Notes under the pieces: generated by a model
What the model was told of the DNA's origin: nothing
The model's input: only the letters and a program-made list of their open reading frames with translations
Database searches by the model: none
Assembly (NCBI GenBank): GCA_963813075.1
Contig: CAWEXU010000006.1
Coordinates: 1 to 64,000, forward strand
Length of the DNA: 64,000 nt
Origin: Methanotrichaceae archaeon
GTDB taxonomy: Archaea > Halobacteriota > Methanosarcinia > Methanotrichales > Methanotrichaceae
Direction of reading: 5' to 3'
In this document: positions 56,308-64,000 of the stretch, piece by piece
How the letters are laid out: every line of letters starts with the position of its first letter
How positions within the stretch are numbered: the first letter of the stretch is position 1
Program-made: the position numbers and the translations under genes

Positions 56308-59300
56308 CTAGCGGAACTCCAGCCTTGCCTCGCTCTTCGCTTCGACAAGATATGCCCTTCCCGGCTCAAGGGTCTCGTTCTCTCCTAAATTGGTCCAATC
56401 CTCGCCCTCATACTTCCAGACAAAGGCCGAGACCAAACCCTTCTTTACCGCCTCCGGATACCTGTACCTCTTATGCTCGGCATTGATGGTGATGTTGGCC
56501 AGGTCCACGCTCTCATTCACCGGCAGGCCGATCATATTCCATCCCACATGCAGGTCCAGCCGGTAGGGCAGATCGACCGGTTTTCCCGGTATCTCCATGG
56601 TGAAGTTCCCGGTGCTGTCTATCAGATATCCCTCTCCCGCCACAAGGCGGGTCACATTTAGCTTGCCAGCCTCTTTCATCCCGAAATCCCACCCATCTTC
56701 GGCAATGGTGAATATGCTCCGGTAGGGCTTGTTCTTCAGGTATCTATCGGCAGATGCATCCAGGGGGTTCAGATAGATGGACACGGCATTCCACCCGGCA
56801 GTGACATTGATCCTCTGAACCTGGCCAGGTATCAACTCATACTCTATCTGGTAGCTCCTCTTCTCGCCTAGCCTCGGCCTGATTATTGGCCACATAACCC
56901 TCTTTTTCTCGCCCAGAGAATATTCGTCATGCCATAGGGAAAGCCCCTCCTCTTTCACCACGACCTTCTCTGCATCTTTGGGCAAGAGCACCTCGCCGAT
57001 AATAGCAGGAGTAGCATCCAGGTTGATATCGCCGCTGGAGCTTTCCGCCTCAATCCAGTAGATCCAATCGGTGGCGCTCTCGTTAAGTGGAGTGATGCTC
57101 ACCATCAAATCCGTCTCATTCTGATCGCTTTCGTTTTCCGCCGAGATCAATGTGGAATAGGGAAGGGAGGGCGAACGGGGCAGAGCAGGCCTGAAGCTCG
57201 GATCTCCCAGGATGACATTCATGTAGGATGTCTGGTTGAGCATCTCATGAACGGACATATCCCAGTTGGGCAGATCATCATCGTACTCAGAGTTCGGCAT
57301 GAGGCTTTCAGTGCCTCTGGATTTGAGCCGGAACAGGTTGTCCGCTTCCATCTGTGCCTGGCCCACAGTGGCATTCTCGAAGACCAGCGATTGGTAGAAG
57401 CTCTTGTAGTAATCATCGGACAGGAAGATGTAGGAAAAGGCAGAGCCTCCAATATAGTTTACCGCTCCCGCCCTTATGAAAGCCAGAGCGATGGAATCCT
57501 CCAGGTTCCCGGGAACATACATCCTTGTTCCTGTCACATTCAGATAGTATCCTTTGAGATTAGAGGTTAGACAGGCGGCAGCAGTGGTGGTCTGAGGTGG
57601 CAGAGTGATCTCTTTTACCTGCGCCCCGGTAAGGGACGAGTCCATCATCGACCAGGCGGACAGCTCCCAGGAATCCTCACTTCCATGATGATCGAAATGA
57701 GCTATATTCTGGCCGTTATTCATCTGCGAGATCGCCTGCTGATAGGTAGCCTCTTCATGGCGCAGATCTTTGACCGCAAATCCTGCCTCCTCCAGGTACC
57801 CCCTTATGCTTATGCCCACGGGAGCCTGAGGGAATGAGAGAGCAGGAGAGGATACAACCAGTCCGTTATTCTTCCAGCTTCCATTAAGCCGGTCATAGGC
57901 CAGGGTGCGGGCCAGGAGTCCTGAGGCATCATACACAGAAAGCCCCATGATTCTTCCCACTGCCACCGTGCTGTAGTTGCTCGTATCCGGCTTGATCTGA
58001 TAGTCTCTGTAGACCTCGTGCTCCATTACATCCGACAGCTTCTGGAACAGGCCGGTGGATATCAGGGGCATGGATCCGGGATCACCGACCACCATAAGAT
58101 ACTCGGGGTCCAGATTCAACTCCGCTACCTTTTGGTTGAGCATCTCCTCCGTCTCCAATGGGTCGATCTGCTGAGGGTCCTTTGCCACATCAACGATTAT
58201 GGCTTTGTGGGAGGATGCGGCCCCTGCTGCGGTCATCGAGAGCCTGGGGACCTTGGTATGGCTGAAAGCGGTGATATTCAAAACATCGACATTGGAGCGA
58301 ACTTCAATGGTGTTGTTGTCAGTCCGGCCTTCATCCGTCTCGATATTAAACAGCCAGTTTCCCGGGGTTAAAAGGGGCACTCTCACATCATAAAGGCCAT
58401 CCCTGGTTATGTTTGTCAGCTTCATTTGGCCAGCTCTCCTGTCCGGGCTGTAGAGGTTGAGGGCCATGTAGCTGGTGTTCCTCTCAATGTTCCAGGAGAT
58501 GTTGGTGCTTCCTGAGTAGATCCATTTGGGATAGGTCAGGTTGATGACCGGCGGATCGTCCACATTTATGAGAGTATGGTTATAGGTGAAGCCATCATAA
58601 GCCGCTGTAGCTCCGGTGTCCAGCCGCTGCGACCAGCCGGCGTCCATGGGGTACATCAGCTCCACCTCCACATTCAGGCTGGCGGATTTTTCAGGCTCCA
58701 GCCGGCTGAAATCCCAGCGGAGGAGAGTGCCGTTGAGAAACGCAGAGGTTTCTGTAACTGGCTTTCTGCTGTAGGGGTCGGTCACATTAACCCCACCAAA
58801 AGCGGTGCTGGTGAGCCTTATCAGCCTCCCCATGGGGAAGATGTCCCGCAGCTGCACGCCCCTGAGCACCTCCTCGCCGGTATTGGTCAGAGTGATATTG
58901 ATTCTCACCACCTCACCATTCTCATCTGCAGGGACCTGATCCGGGCTCAGCTCCATTCTTATCAGCAGGTCTTTTACCATTGAGCGCTCAATCAGCTTGC
59001 TTGAGGCTGGCGGCAGGAGGGATAGATCATGGGAGTTGGTCAAAACCACCATTGTTGGGCTTTCACCTCTTTTTTTCATCTCTTCGATCAAGAGCTCTTC
59101 GCTGCCTTCGTAGAGAGTGATATTCATCTGACTCAGGTTCTGCAATACATTCTTGGATATCGGACCGAGCAAGATCGCCTCCTCAGCTCCCAGCCGGTTC
59201 AATGCAAGACCGGTCTCTTCCGGCAGGGTCTCATTCACAAAAAGCAGCGGCCAGTTCAGGTAGGAGGCAATGGGTGCTGCCTGAAGGGCAGCGGTATAGT

Positions 59301-60642
59301 TCTCTCCCACAATCACAGCTCCCGGAGAGGCTACCCAGCGGCGGCTTATCTTCTCACCCAGGTCGAAGCTGTTGTTGGCCATTATGGTCGCGTCGCTTCT
59401 CCAGGATACATTGCCCACCGCAAGAACCTCTCCCCCAAGCTGATTCAGCAGCCAGCGAGCCGCAGAGGAGGGTGGCTCAAGCTCTGACCAGATGGGCGTA
59501 TGGACGACGTCGTACTCGAAGGCAATTCCCGAGGCACCTGATTCTGCCAGATCCTCGATATAACCTACGGCTCCCTTTACATTCTGGGTGGAGAGGACGT
59601 AGCCCACATAATCATCGCTCAGCCGGATGTAAACCGGGTTAATGCTATCCCCGATGGCCAGCCTGACATCATCGGCTGAGATGGGAGAGATCAATGTGAA
59701 GTCTGCCACCTTTGCCATCCGGGCGAAGTCGTATCCCCGGCTCCGGTCGAAGGGACTGTCCAGTGCCACACCAAGCTTAACCGGGCCCAGGTCAGATGTT
59801 ATGTTCCGGGCATCCATTACGATCCTCATCAGCTGGTCCTGCTTCCACCCGGCCCATCTCTCCCGGTTGTAGCTGTTGGCATTGACCTTACTGATATCTA
59901 TTCCTGTGTCCGTATAGAACCTCTCTTTGCAGATGTCGCAGTAGCAATAATTTTCGTCCTGGAATCCGAACTGGTAGAGGACGACACCATCGACATGATA
60001 GTCATCGATCAGCATCTCGATCTGGTTGTACAGATTGTCCCTCACCTCGGGGTTTGCCGGGCAGAAATAGCTGCTATTGCCTCCTATGGCTGGGTCAGGC
60101 TGCTGCAATAGATAGCTATCGATTCCGGACTGATCCGGCTCCAACGACCTCAGGCCAGCCTCGGCCATCAGGGCCATCTCCTCTTCCAGACCTTCCAGCT
60201 CGTCAGCTGCGGCTTCGGACACTGGTATCTCTAAAGTGACGGCGACATAAGCCTGGATACCGTCCTTTTGGGCTGCTTCCACCATAGACCTGACCCTGTC
60301 GCCAGAGCCGTGTATGGTTATTGCGCTTATATTTGCCCCTTTGAATGTATCCAGAATTGCCGAAGCACCATATCTCTTGATATCGCTCTCTTCGATCCAG
60401 CCATTTCTCTCACCGGCATGGACCTCTTTGGGGAGGATGAGCATCGGCTTGACAGTAGTGCTGTTCTCATGGGAATAGATGGCCAGAGGGGTGGCGGCAA
60501 TAGATGCATGCCAGTCGTCTGCGCCAACCAGGATAACATCTTCGAATTCTCCTTTCACTCCCATAGCCCGTGGCTGGTCATCTGCCCCAGATATCTGAAA
60601 AGTAGATAGTATAATTATAACTAATAAACAAATGCTCTTCAA
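56308..60642 (-). CDS. Giant secreted multidomain protein: glycoside-hydrolase-like barrel, cell-wall-binding-like repeats, DUF11 and C25 (gingipain-like) peptidase
   Basis: Signal peptide; CPANPEVR..VDGV..CYCDIC; AAPIAS..PLLF; LMVVGDP, VGRIMG, FDHHGS..AAAC, ILGDPS; GWN repeats at the C-terminus. Confidence 0.75.
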   Translation of the reverse strand: MKSICLLVIIILSTFQISGADDQPRAMGVKGEFEDVILVGADDWHASIAATPLAIYSHENSTTVKPMLILPKEVHAGERNGWIEESDIKRYGASAILDTFKGANISAITIHGSGDRVRSMVEAAQKDGIQAYVAVTLEIPVSEAAADELEGLEEEMALMAEAGLRSLEPDQSGIDSYLLQQPDPAIGGNSSYFCPANPEVRDNLYNQIEMLIDDYHVDGVVLYQFGFQDENYCYCDICKERFYTDTGIDISKVNANSYNRERWAGWKQDQLMRIVMDARNITSDLGPVKLGVALDSPFDRSRGYDFARMAKVADFTLISPISADDVRLAIGDSINPVYIRLSDDYVGYVLSTQNVKGAVGYIEDLAESGASGIAFEYDVVHTPIWSELEPPSSAARWLLNQLGGEVLAVGNVSWRSDATIMANNSFDLGEKISRRWVASPGAVIVGENYTAALQAAPIASYLNWPLLFVNETLPEETGLALNRLGAEEAILLGPISKNVLQNLSQMNITLYEGSEELLIEEMKKRGESPTMVVLTNSHDLSLLPPASSKLIERSMVKDLLIRMELSPDQVPADENGEVVRINITLTNTGEEVLRGVQLRDIFPMGRLIRLTSTAFGGVNVTDPYSRKPVTETSAFLNGTLLRWDFSRLEPEKSASLNVEVELMYPMDAGWSQRLDTGATAAYDGFTYNHTLINVDDPPVINLTYPKWIYSGSTNISWNIERNTSYMALNLYSPDRRAGQMKLTNITRDGLYDVRVPLLTPGNWLFNIETDEGRTDNNTIEVRSNVDVLNITAFSHTKVPRLSMTAAGAASSHKAIIVDVAKDPQQIDPLETEEMLNQKVAELNLDPEYLMVVGDPGSMPLISTGLFQKLSDVMEHEVYRDYQIKPDTSNYSTVAVGRIMGLSVYDASGLLARTLAYDRLNGSWKNNGLVVSSPALSFPQAPVGISIRGYLEEAGFAVKDLRHEEATYQQAISQMNNGQNIAHFDHHGSEDSWELSAWSMMDSSLTGAQVKEITLPPQTTTAAACLTSNLKGYYLNVTGTRMYVPGNLEDSIALAFIRAGAVNYIGGSAFSYIFLSDDYYKSFYQSLVFENATVGQAQMEADNLFRLKSRGTESLMPNSEYDDDLPNWDMSVHEMLNQTSYMNVILGDPSFRPALPRSPSLPYSTLISAENESDQNETDLMVSITPLNESATDWIYWIEAESSSGDINLDATPAIIGEVLLPKDAEKVVVKEEGLSLWHDEYSLGEKKRVMWPIIRPRLGEKRSYQIEYELIPGQVQRINVTAGWNAVSIYLNPLDASADRYLKNKPYRSIFTIAEDGWDFGMKEAGKLNVTRLVAGEGYLIDSTGNFTMEIPGKPVDLPYRLDLHVGWNMIGLPVNESVDLANITINAEHKRYRYPEAVKKGLVSAFVWKYEGEDWTNLGENETLEPGRAYLVEAKSEARLEFR

Positions 60643-62231
60643 GCGCTCACCTCCTCCAATAAGACACCTGCCTCACGAAGTGCCTTCGTATAATCGTCTT
60701 CAACCCTGCCCACGACCGTCACCTGGGTGAGGGAGGTATTGCTTTCAGTCATCTCCTCTATGGCCTCCAGGGAGGCGGGTGTGACATTGCCTCTGCATAC
60801 CACCATTGGCAAGCTCTCATTCATCGCTATCTGATAGGCTCGGTATATGTCTGCATGCCTGGGGGTGGTCAAAACTGCCCTGGAGGTACCATTATTCCAG
60901 ATCTCCTTCATAAAGAGCCAGCACTCTTCATAGAGGCTTTCGCTATGTATGCGCTTGATTTCGACATCTTGAAGCTCTTTATTGATATCCTGGGGAATAA
61001 CAGATTCATTGCCCAGGATCACGATACTGATATAGCCCTGCAGCCTCTCCAGATAATCTTTGGACAACTCGTCCTGAGGTATCATGTATACGTCCGGGGT
61101 CTTATTGCCAAATAGGGCCAGAGCACCTACTGTGCCATAGATGACATCGTCTCCGGTAACCACCGCCAGTCCCCCGGGAGCTACTGCGGAAATGGTCGCG
61201 GTCTCCTCAGGCATCGGAATGCCATGTGAGTCTGAGAGCTTGAAGATGAGGGGATACTCGCCTGCTTTTGATGCCAGAATGGTGAAGTTAGCATATCCGG
61301 GCTCCTCTGGGGTTACAGACACCGTCTGCGCCAGAGGTATCACCATCAGCTCATCGGGAGAGTACATCGAGACCCATATGTCCTCTTTGACATCTAAAAT
61401 TATCTTGAATTTGCCCTCATAGCTCTTGTTGGTAGCGATCCTCTCCGGGACAACAATCTCCGTATCGTAGCCTCTGACCACCAATCCAAACTCGACCTCC
61501 GCCTGGACCGAGGAGTTCCTGGATCGGTTGCCCAGGGATGTGGCGGTTATGGTTACATTATCCTTCTCGCCTGGCTTGGTCGTCTGTACCTGCAGCTTGA
61601 TCTCATGGGTCGCCCCGGGATCCAGGGGCAGGTCATAGGGCATGCCAAGGGGCTCATCGTCATCCAGCAGCACGACGCTCCAGCCTTCTGGCAGAATTCC
61701 TGCGTCAATCGAGGCGATATCTCTGAATGAGCCCAGATTCTTGACCGCCAGGTTAAACTGGGCAATATCCTTGGCGCTGGCTCGAAGAGAGGCTGATTTG
61801 GCATCTTCCACGGTCATGACAATGCCGTAGCTCTCCTGCACAATGACTTCCACATGAAAGTCTATTCTTAAAGGAATGGAAGGGGGAGCGCTCTCCATCA
61901 GGTATATAGATCCGGTGTAGACACCAGGCTCAGTCTCCGGGGGTATGCCGATATAGATCTTGATCTCTGCCTCGTCCCCTGGTGAAAGAGGTTTACCTTC
62001 CGGAACGTCGATGAAAATATAATCTCCGGCGTTTCCGATCATTTCGGTTTTAGAGATCTTGAAGATGGTTGAGTCTCCATTATTAATCACCTTAAGGGTC
62101 CTCTCGTCACCGTCTCCTGGATGAAGAACGATGTCAAATCTATCTTTATCTGGTGTCAGCTGGGCGGCGCTGGCGCCGATCAGCAGAAACAGAATCATAA
62201 ATGGGTATATCAGCCTCATCTCACACCACAT
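60639..62231 (-). CDS. Secreted Ig/NEW3-like domain S-layer-associated protein
   Basis: Signal peptide, VINNG / VKNLG..LPEGW Ig-like motifs; overlaps the downstream gene by 4 nt. Confidence 0.7.
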   Translation of the reverse strand: MWCEMRLIYPFMILFLLIGASAAQLTPDKDRFDIVLHPGDGDERTLKVINNGDSTIFKISKTEMIGNAGDYIFIDVPEGKPLSPGDEAEIKIYIGIPPETEPGVYTGSIYLMESAPPSIPLRIDFHVEVIVQESYGIVMTVEDAKSASLRASAKDIAQFNLAVKNLGSFRDIASIDAGILPEGWSVVLLDDDEPLGMPYDLPLDPGATHEIKLQVQTTKPGEKDNVTITATSLGNRSRNSSVQAEVEFGLVVRGYDTEIVVPERIATNKSYEGKFKIILDVKEDIWVSMYSPDELMVIPLAQTVSVTPEEPGYANFTILASKAGEYPLIFKLSDSHGIPMPEETATISAVAPGGLAVVTGDDVIYGTVGALALFGNKTPDVYMIPQDELSKDYLERLQGYISIVILGNESVIPQDINKELQDVEIKRIHSESLYEECWLFMKEIWNNGTSRAVLTTPRHADIYRAYQIAMNESLPMVVCRGNVTPASLEAIEEMTESNTSLTQVTVVGRVEDDYTKALREAGVLLEEVSA

Positions 62232-62388: not shown

Positions 62389-62892
62389 ATGTGCATGAAC
62401 AGCTTTTGGTGTGTTTCTTTGGACCGTGAGAAAGCAATCCTCGTGGCCACGCCCTTCAAGAAGCGGGGCAAGAAGAGCCTGAAGATAAGCGATTTCATCT
62501 TTGCTCTCTCCCTGGATCTGAAATGGGGGTCTCCGGAGAAGGTGCGCGCTCTACTCAGGGAGGCTGAAGCTGAAGGGATGGTAAAGATGGAAGGAGAGAT
62601 GGTGTCTGCAGGGTCCGACCTGGAGGCGGTGGAGGTTCCCATGGGCTTTAAACCCTCAACGGAAGAGGGCATACTGGACCAGGGAATAAGGCTCATCACC
62701 TCCCAGACGGGCATGAGCAGAAAAGAGGTCATAGCCCTGGCCAATGAGAAACAGGATTCCCTGAAAAAGCTGGTGGAGCTGGATGCGGTGGTCCTCCTGC
62801 TGGCCAGAGAGATGGGGATCGATGTCCACGATCTGGCGGAAAAGGCTTATGAGAACCTCCTTGCCCGCACCAGGGGAGTTCAGGAGAGCTAA
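62389..62892 (+). CDS. DUF2240-like archaeal protein (start uncertain)
   Basis: VATPFKKRG..FIFALSLDLKW.SP..VEVPMGFKP. Confidence 0.75.
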   Translation: MCMNSFWCVSLDREKAILVATPFKKRGKKSLKISDFIFALSLDLKWGSPEKVRALLREAEAEGMVKMEGEMVSAGSDLEAVEVPMGFKPSTEEGILDQGIRLITSQTGMSRKEVIALANEKQDSLKKLVELDAVVLLLAREMGIDVHDLAEKAYENLLARTRGVQES

Positions 62893-62902
62893 GGAGAAAG
62901 AT

Positions 62903-63073
62903 ATGGCAAGCATTACCCTCTATGAGCTGCTGGGGATACCCAAAGAGCGCGCCGATGAAGTCGCCAGGAGGGTCAGAGATGCATTCTCTGAATCGGATAC
63001 GCCCGGGGAATGGGTTGGAAGGCTGATAGAGGAGTTTGGAGTGGACAGGAATAATGCAGATATCTTTGCCTGA
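62903..63073 (+). CDS. Small hypothetical protein, possibly truncated next to the IS element
   Basis: AAGGAG SD; MASITLYELLGIPKERADEV... 56 aa. Confidence 0.55.
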   Translation: MASITLYELLGIPKERADEVARRVRDAFSESDTPGEWVGRLIEEFGVDRNNADIFA

Positions 63074-63103
63074 AGGCAGACTCTCGGGACAGGATGGATA
63101 TGC

Positions 63104-63492
63104 GTCAACCACCGCGTCCTGAAGGGCGCGGCTTGCCTCTACGCAAAAAGTCGCGAGGCGCAAGGGTGGCTGACTCTTCATGCTGACTACACTGTGGCAC
63201 GATAATGTTGTGCTGGCACCCCAGGCACGGGAAGAGGCTTCATCTGTCATGCAATCCACCAGATTCCTTGCGGAATCTCGTGCTTCCGATGCCGTGTCTG
63301 TTCGATTTGCTGGTATGAGTCAGTTAAGCCGTGTGTCTGTTCCTCGTCAAAACGAGGGGAAGTGCCCAACCATATCGAATGGTCTGACTCTAGCAATAGA
63401 CAACAGGAGACAGATTTGTGAGCATAAATAACTTACGGGAGTCGCCCAATTCATACCCACCCTGAAGGATGGGGACTCCTTGGGCAACAAGT
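63104..63492 (+). mobile_element. Non-autonomous IS200/IS605 (IscB-type) element carrying an omegaRNA/HEARO-like scaffold but no ORF
   Basis: 5' GTCAACCACCGCGTCCTGAAGGGCGCGGCTTG and 3' CAATTCATACCCACCCTGAAGGATGGGGACTCCTTG terminal hairpins share a CCTGAAGG loop; GTCAACCACC pairs with GGTGGCTGAC. Confidence 0.8.
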
Positions 63493-63563
63493 TGAAGGGC
63501 GTGGTATTTCTTATGCCAGACCCTATAAGTGCGAGCAGCCGGTAATCGCAAGCTTAATCTGCC

Positions 63564-64000
63564 ATGGGAGAGTTTTCGGCGCTTATGACTCCCAGGGTTC
63601 TATTTACAACCTCTTACCGAAACAGCTCTGAGCCCTACGACTACATCGGGGCCAACACCCGGTCGTGGTTCAGATTTTACTGGCCGCGCATCCAATCATT
63701 TGGCCTGAGATTTCTGAAGCAGAACATTCCGGAGATTGAGATCCTGGAGTTCCCGACCTGGGATGAATACAATAAGAAGCTCCAGGAGGGCTGGGATGTT
63801 GTCGGCCTCTCCTTTTATCTGAGCGAGACCCATGAGGCGGTACAGATGGCTGAAGCGGCCCATAAAACGGGCGCAGAGGTCTGGGCAGGAAACTACGGCG
63901 CTCTGACCACCGCTGTGCAGGACAAGTTCGACAAGATATTCGTGGGATATGCAGAGCATCAGCTAGCACCCTATTTCGGCAGGCAGATTAAGGACATCAT
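63564..64000 (+). CDS. Probable B12-binding radical SAM protein, N-terminal part (runs off the window)
   Basis: Hand-translated ...SFGLRFLKQNIPEIEILEFPTW..WDVVGLSFY..VWAGNYGA; the radical SAM motif lies outside the window. Confidence 0.6.
   Translation, partial: MGEFSALMTPRVLFTTSYRNSSEPYDYIGANTRSWFRFYWPRIQSFGLRFLKQNIPEIEILEFPTWDEYNKKLQEGWDVVGLSFYLSETHEAVQMAEAAHKTGAEVWAGNYGALTTAVQDKFDKIFVGYAEHQLAPYFGRQIKDI

Follow-up and report, generated by a model that had tools for sequence, protein, structure and literature searches.

A gene-less IS200/IS605 element of TnpB type in Methanotrichaceae with a conserved structured RNA module on its minus strand

Near the end of the 64,000-nucleotide stretch of Methanotrichaceae archaeon DNA that we analysed (contig CAWEXU010000006.1; hereafter the window, from the genome G000) lies a unit without a protein gene, which raises the question as to what kind of mobile element it is, which nuclease it is likely to be paired with and what its interior does. 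Comparison with a second copy in the same genome (G000:C5:147125-147512, 98.5% identity over 394 nt) sets the element at 63104-63491, a length of 388 bp on the minus strand; the flanks of the two copies differ and TTGA follows both. The unit of about 390 bp at 63085..63500 that an earlier note on this DNA had delineated is real, but its true extent is 63104-63491 and positions 63085-63103 are host flank. Some part of the element is matched in 27 of the 61 genomes searched, with near-full-length relatives outside G000 in G005 (87%), G021 (86%), G035 (83%) and G011 (71%, three copies), and over all loci collected from relatives and metagenomes the element stands in 51 distinct flanks. In a close relative of the locus that lacks the element (G032) the upstream flank joins TTGA, so that the empty site rejoins exactly and insertion is seen to occur 3' of a fixed 4-5 nt target without duplication. 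Three further relatives have TTAG or TTAA at the insertion position and are therefore without the target. Subterminal hairpins stand at both ends, as in IS200/IS605 elements, and an ORF search between the ends finds no iscB or tnpA, as the earlier note had reported, and no tnpB either. The element is a real, mobile and protein-free IS200/IS605 derivative of TnpB type, which is a known kind; sibling copies with different flanks and an empty-site allele, both of which the earlier note had named as things to look for, exist, and it had also placed the flank and target DNA correctly.

The host gene (62903..63073, plus strand, no Pfam match), aligned with eight relatives, is about 35 codons shorter than in those genomes owing to a frameshifting deletion of about 100 nt. 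This deletion ends about 35 nt before the element, which sits at the ancestral stop codon of the gene, and it is from this codon that the TTGA of the target comes. The neighbours in the window are a DUF2240 gene (62389-62892) and a radical SAM gene (63564-64000), whose order is kept in many genomes of the genus, and further upstream two large secreted-looking proteins of 1444 and 530 aa are encoded on the minus strand (56308-62231).

Read on the minus strand, the element is preceded by the host target TTCAA (63492..63496), the putative TAM; the earlier note had offered (G)TTGAA, of which TTGA(A) is indeed the host target while the G is the terminal base of the element. The left end (63456..63491) carries a DNA guide, GAGT (63475-63478), next to a subterminal hairpin (63456-63474), and is common to full tnpB elements of G011, in which the four bases beside the left hairpin covary with the target (GAGT-TTCAA, GAGG-TTCAC). 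In IS608 the DNA guide beside the left hairpin matches the target, and the covariation seen here is what this rule would lead one to expect of an element on the minus strand. A putative BRE/TATA-like promoter (63423..63437) follows a short way inside the left end. Its position corresponds to that of the same box upstream of tnpB genes, which in L048/L049 stands about 25-30 nt ahead of the start codon; a scan for sigma-70 promoters, which is not applicable here, returned none. There follow on the same strand a structured RNA module (63175..63394) and the right end (63104..63174), made up of a closing stem, an inner hairpin (63135-63159), a DNA guide CAAG (63132-63135), a subterminal hairpin (63111-63132) and the terminal TTGAC. 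The two hairpins sharing a CCTGAAGG loop that had been noted before are present, at 63111-63130 and 63456-63474, and the 71-nt stem described at the 5' end of the unit is present and covaries. Beyond the right end the host flank at 63084..63103 (minus strand) is the predicted guide, of about 16-20 nt with the length assumed, in agreement with the empty-site junction. Contigs from two RNA-library assemblies span the element from 63104 as far as 63363 or 63373 and leave 63397-63560 uncovered, where a DNA run is continuous; as these contigs are unstranded and without a start, stop at points that differ by 10 bases and may include DNA, their coverage gives a weak hint of an internal transcript start. 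A further RNA run (X17), with a depth of about 2 and a small RNA share, was not counted as evidence.

The ends were examined for the nuclease to which they belong. The last 71 nt of the element translate like the C-terminus of tnpB, tblastn of the interior matches these 71 nt only, and 60/71 positions are identical to the right end of three 395-aa tnpB elements of G000, compared with 36/71 and 37/71 (ungapped) for two other types. The element's right end opens fifteen sites in G000, of which eight have an oppositely oriented tnpB, six are without a gene and one has been interrupted by a further IS; iscB occurs at none. The earlier note had considered these ends typical of IscB elements and had proposed an IscB/IsrB omegaRNA read on the plus strand, with its guide at the 5' end and a TAM on the 3' side. 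In favour of that proposal, the right end of the transposon is where IscB omegaRNAs start (Meers et al., 10.1101/2023.03.14.532601), host transcription here would enter from the plus strand, and the IscB domain PF14239 (RRXRR) matches 2 of 59 genomes of the genus. Neither of these two, however, is among the ten carriers of the element in G000's genus, the carriers covered by the IscB search, and PF14239 gave no match in G000 itself, an 83% complete assembly in which the control is silent. The HEARO covariance model (RF02033) gives no match at E<=1 at the element, yet scores 116 bits on its control, the region ahead of a true iscB in G066, whereas our covariance model of the interior has no match at the iscB loci of the genus. 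Both the fold and the TATA-like box favour the minus strand, on which the guide would be 3' and the TAM, TTCAA, 5', as for TnpB. HEARO does give 19-23 bits on related elements, including one tnpB element, through the right-end stem alone, and it is this weak signal, together with the fact that IscB omegaRNAs also start at the right end, that accounts for the IscB impression. The likeness to the IscB omegaRNA amounts to a right-end hairpin read from the other strand; the element differs in strand, in its 3' rather than 5' guide and in having neither a match to the HEARO core nor an iscB gene, and we regard the IscB reading as already largely refuted and scarcely probable.

We examined the conservation of the predicted helices of the interior. 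The module comprises a 7-bp long-range helix (63384-63390 with 63317-63323), an invariant GGCAC/GUGCC helix (63362-63366 with 63215-63219), a three-way junction (63283-63293 with 63224-63236), a GNRA hairpin (63261-63278) and a further hairpin (63197-63213). From 58 candidate copies we retained 26 below 97.5% identity, and 25 after one truncated copy had been dropped. Across these 25 copies 96.9% of cells pair, compared with 83.4% in shuffles and 32-40% in slid controls, and changes on both sides are found in 30 of 57 pairs (19 of 35 in the interior), values that 0 of 500 shuffles reach; the structure was drawn from the same, related sequences and the covariation figures therefore lean high. 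A first all-against-all covariation scan was not used as it was dominated by the split between two subfamilies. The strand is indicated by G-U cells, which number 81 on the minus strand against 15 A-C cells, by one loop that reads GUAA or GCAA in 25/25 copies, and by the consensus energy over 10 copies, -66.0 kcal/mol for the minus strand versus -51.4 kcal/mol for the plus strand, on which single-sequence folding is weak (z -1.77). The 7-bp long-range helix is complete in 22/25 copies in four unrelated sequence versions, with energies of -10.7 kcal/mol for cognate and -6.4 kcal/mol for non-cognate partners, and, should the GGCAC/GUGCC helix form, would make a pseudoknot with it; this second helix is invariant and never covaries. 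The compensatory long-range changes and the strand-specific G-U and GNRA signatures indicate that selection acts on the interior as an RNA read from the minus strand. The motifs GACTACAC, AGTTAAG and CAACCATATCGA pointed out in the earlier note all exist, but only GACTACAC is conserved across 13 aligned copies.

The module has no known relative among the models that we searched. Apart from the iscB control there was no family-level Rfam match at E<=1 to 5 in the window and 20 loci, and our interior model (R1), run with filters off, scores at most 9.4 bits on tnpB, iscB and family B, C and D loci (described below). A decayed tnpB was rejected as the origin of the interior, there being no TnpB protein homology outside the last 71 nt. 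Likenesses to group I and group II introns, RNase P, HDV-like ribozymes and Cas12f tracrRNA were also considered, and none fits in detail.

The elements resembling that of the window, which we call family A, were then counted in a wider collection. An exact 26-base pattern search returned 70 metagenome loci, 67 of them with a readable right end, corresponding to 40 distinct flanks. Among the 29 complete metagenome copies with a family A left end 24 measure 385-394 bp and five 325 bp. A script matched the left end in 33 flanks, of which four were dropped, three having less than 50 nt of upstream DNA and one a match within the promoter; in the remaining 29 sites TCAA precedes the element in 29/29 and TTCAA in 26/29. 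Left ends have been swapped among family A copies with TCAA kept. R1 matches 13 of 105 genomes of the family Methanotrichaceae, ten of the 13 being in the same genus, and gives nothing convincing outside the family among a sample of 151 genomes of the class; with a second model (R2) G000 was the sole match among a sample of 151 genomes of the phylum. As far as found, the elements thus appear confined to Methanotrichaceae, a family of methane-making archaea. A search for a version with a nuclease gene inside gave none, and TnpB was encountered in 2/70 metagenome loci, both times on the opposite strand and outside the element. The genic placement of 36 insertions (3 sense, 4 antisense, 2 both, 27 neither) shows no sense bias. 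The two G000 guides have no other TCAA-adjacent target in the G000 assembly, which fits self-retention rather than regulation.

A sister family, B, extends these observations. It has three copies in G000 (G000:C30:362653, C31:64871 and C4:82696; L184, L187 and L283), the C4:82696 copy having lost its left end. Its members carry a divergent DUF7557 gene of 46 aa; the right end belongs to the 395-aa (TTCAA) type, the left end is of the TTTAT type and the targets are TTTAT-like. The structural elements of the family B RNA come in the same order as in family A. Among 15 copies both partners vary in 37 of 47 pairs, and all cells (100%) of the long-range helix are paired. Homology between A and B is modest but measurable: the family A profile matches 1/15 B copies at E 6.6e-7 and no shuffled ones, and the family B model finds the equivalent three-way junction in 4/6 A loci at 12-13 bits. 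TnpB was found in 2/35 loci of the family B scan, outside the elements, and 17 of 33 family B pattern matches fall in Methanothrix, Methanosaeta or Methanotrichaceae records, the rest being without a right end or due to chance.

Three intact 395-aa TnpB genes of G000, one of them at G000:C4:55268-56452, follow TTCAA and their products keep the RuvC triad D184/E276/D360. Among solved structures they are nearest to Cas12f, and ISDra2 TnpB is not among their 23 matches. A transposase is available as well, with seven Y1_Tnp matches in G000 and a TnpA-only element bearing the same hairpin at both ends at C4:312559. The 395-type TnpB occurs in 6/13 family A genomes, against 1.6 expected among 105 (Fisher p 0.001, a value overstated by kinship), and 7/13, including G019 (99% complete), are without it at E<=1e-80; other TTCAA-type TnpBs exist. 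Family B joins a 395-type right end to a TTTAT left end, from which it follows that the right end alone does not name the nuclease partner. The 395-aa Cas12f-like TnpB of G000 is likely to be the nuclease that loads the guide. G026 (one contig, 98% complete) holds 10 tnpB copies and no family A or B match. Within tnpB itself constraint on synonymous sites, assessed in 13 copies with few sites per window, extends only over about the last 45 codons (~170 nt), so that the tnpB cis guide is about half as long as the element's RNA. Given both this short constraint and the spread of tnpB without the module in G026, TnpB does not need the module.

Taken together we favour, with a probability of roughly 0.68, a minus-strand gene-less element from which its own promoter drives an RNA of about 290 nt that takes its 3' guide from the flank and is loaded in trans by TnpB. 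The order on the minus strand would be the 5' TTCAA target, the left end, the TATA-like promoter, the RNA of about 290 nt, the TnpB-type right end and the 3' guide. By analogy with Meers et al. (10.1101/2023.03.14.532601), a Y1 TnpA acting in trans would excise and insert the element as single-stranded DNA, and TnpB carrying the element RNA would cut the empty site (TTCAA plus guide), with recombination restoring the element. The weakest step concerns the 5' module of about 220 nt, which would take the place that tnpB mRNA ordinarily has ahead of the right-end domain and may have been kept as a stabiliser of the free transcript or for better loading against competing cis guides. The reason for choosing such a role is that TnpB ordinarily processes its guide out of the mRNA that encodes it (PMC10278001).

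Gene-less elements of this kind are not in themselves new. Gene-less IS605 elements (PATEs) that encode omegaRNAs for TnpB in trans have been described (Meers et al., 10.1101/2023.03.14.532601), and stand-alone omegaRNAs have been reported to work in trans, their biological role being described as unknown (PMC10691335). Processed TnpB omegaRNAs of 79-466 nt are on record (PMC10278001), and the length of the element's RNA alone is therefore not new. Like PATEs the element has no protein gene, has the ends of tnpB elements and would depend on TnpA in trans, supplying an omegaRNA for TnpB in trans with a guide from the right flank; unlike them its interior is not a trimmed tnpB end but a separate covarying module of about 220 nt behind its own putative promoter, with a homologous sister family. 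The IS1341-type tnpB-only elements of the same genomes (395-aa and 377-aa TnpB, Cas12f-related) resemble it in TTCAA target and promoter position, sharing the left end in the 377-aa type and the 71-nt right-end domain in the 395-aa type, whereas the element lacks their ORF and their overlapping omegaRNA is constrained over about the last 170 nt and has no module. The new part is thus the 5' module of about 220 nt, which is conserved, strongly covarying and without an Rfam match; a full-text literature search returned no description of it, although these archaeal elements may figure in the ortholog lists of PMC10278001 and PMC10691335 or in the extended figures of Meers et al.

Three other explanations of the interior have to be weighed against a trans-acting TnpB guide RNA. 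The module could be a separate functional RNA, a self-processing ribozyme or a protein platform, for which the IS605 ends serve as vehicle and in which a TnpB guide is limited to the last 70-100 nt or incidental. Its absence from tnpB genes, which do not need it, would agree with this, as would its many invariant unpaired bases, the homologous folds in two families that differ in left ends, promoters and targets, and the divergent DUF7557 small gene in some copies; the module is nevertheless fused to the right-end domain in every copy read, Rfam yields no ribozyme family match and the insertions in genes lack a sense bias, and we hold a separate RNA to be unlikely. The element could alternatively be passive and palindrome-associated, only its DNA ends mattering to TnpA and the interior being an inherited relic, as might be suggested by shorter elements with the same ends (L098, L015), by the persistence of internally deleted copies (the 325-bp form, L013, L250) and by decayed copies in G070 and G004. 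Long-distance compensatory changes and the strand-specific G-U and GNRA signatures point instead to selection acting on an RNA, and 24 of the 29 complete metagenome copies keep 385-394 bp, which makes passivity quite improbable.

A group I intron fused to IS605 ends and splicing out of host transcripts would share with the element its size and pseudoknot-like fold, and a UAGUC stretch seven bases after a hairpin is perhaps reminiscent of group I P7. Group I introns, however, end in G where the element has a terminal C. They also nearly always follow U (PMC4227781), whereas here the last base of the target is A. With no match to the group I models of Rfam, which are general and not subgroup-specific, no sense-insertion bias and a putative promoter inside the element, we give very little weight to this origin. 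The comparison with known IStrons (group I intron plus IS605; PMC4227781) leads to the same point, in that a large structured RNA inside IS605 ends is common to both while the boundary bases, internal promoter and insertion orientation of the element are unfit for splicing.

The role of stand-alone omegaRNAs becomes testable with this family, which supplies dozens of copies found in nature, a candidate nuclease and TAM that can be named, a structure supported by covariation and a 5' module that is cleanly deletable. A module that improves loading or stability would be a natural coding-free scaffold for compact Cas12f-like nucleases, and a catalytic one a new ribozyme class. A bolder and rather doubtful extension is that the elements form an RNA-only class of IS605 parasites with a new fold of about 220 nt, which would act either as a tracrRNA-like scaffold that captures Cas12f-related TnpB better than the cis guide (families A and B, with TTCAA and TTTAT, addressing different nucleases) or as a guide-maturing ribozyme. 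Such a class would offer a view of a free, self-promoted guide scaffold evolving after release from coding overlap, and of a step between TnpB omegaRNA and Cas12f tracrRNA.

A number of further arrangements were observed among the loci. In two of them (L104, L162) a family A RNA is preceded not by the usual left-end promoter but by a small divergent gene resembling that of family B, and the shared sequence begins at the position of window 63397, marking the likely 5' limit of the RNA. Further gene-less elements, type C (L039, L050, L015) and type D (L040, L084, L085, G000:C29:4957), share the element ends and promoter and have a GNRA hairpin each, with interiors that differ and that neither model matches; by eye they look related, and in type D the inner hairpin of the right end is much longer. 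Family A copies in decay (L251:1000-1340 and L252:960-1280, in G070 and G004), whose ends are broken and whose mismatches are scattered, contrast with the covarying live copies. One family A insertion is common to two species, G005 (L009) and G021 (L010), with a tnpB element inserted about 100 nt away, and at G000:C19:2628 a tnpB-type right end is followed by two opposite-strand ORFs of another IS, apparently inserted into the element. Finally, IMG/VR contigs (L245:1365-2100 and L246) show a family B element and a family A element arranged in tandem at a distance of about 30 nt. An inverted left end separates the two, and part of a 353-aa tnpB lies close by.
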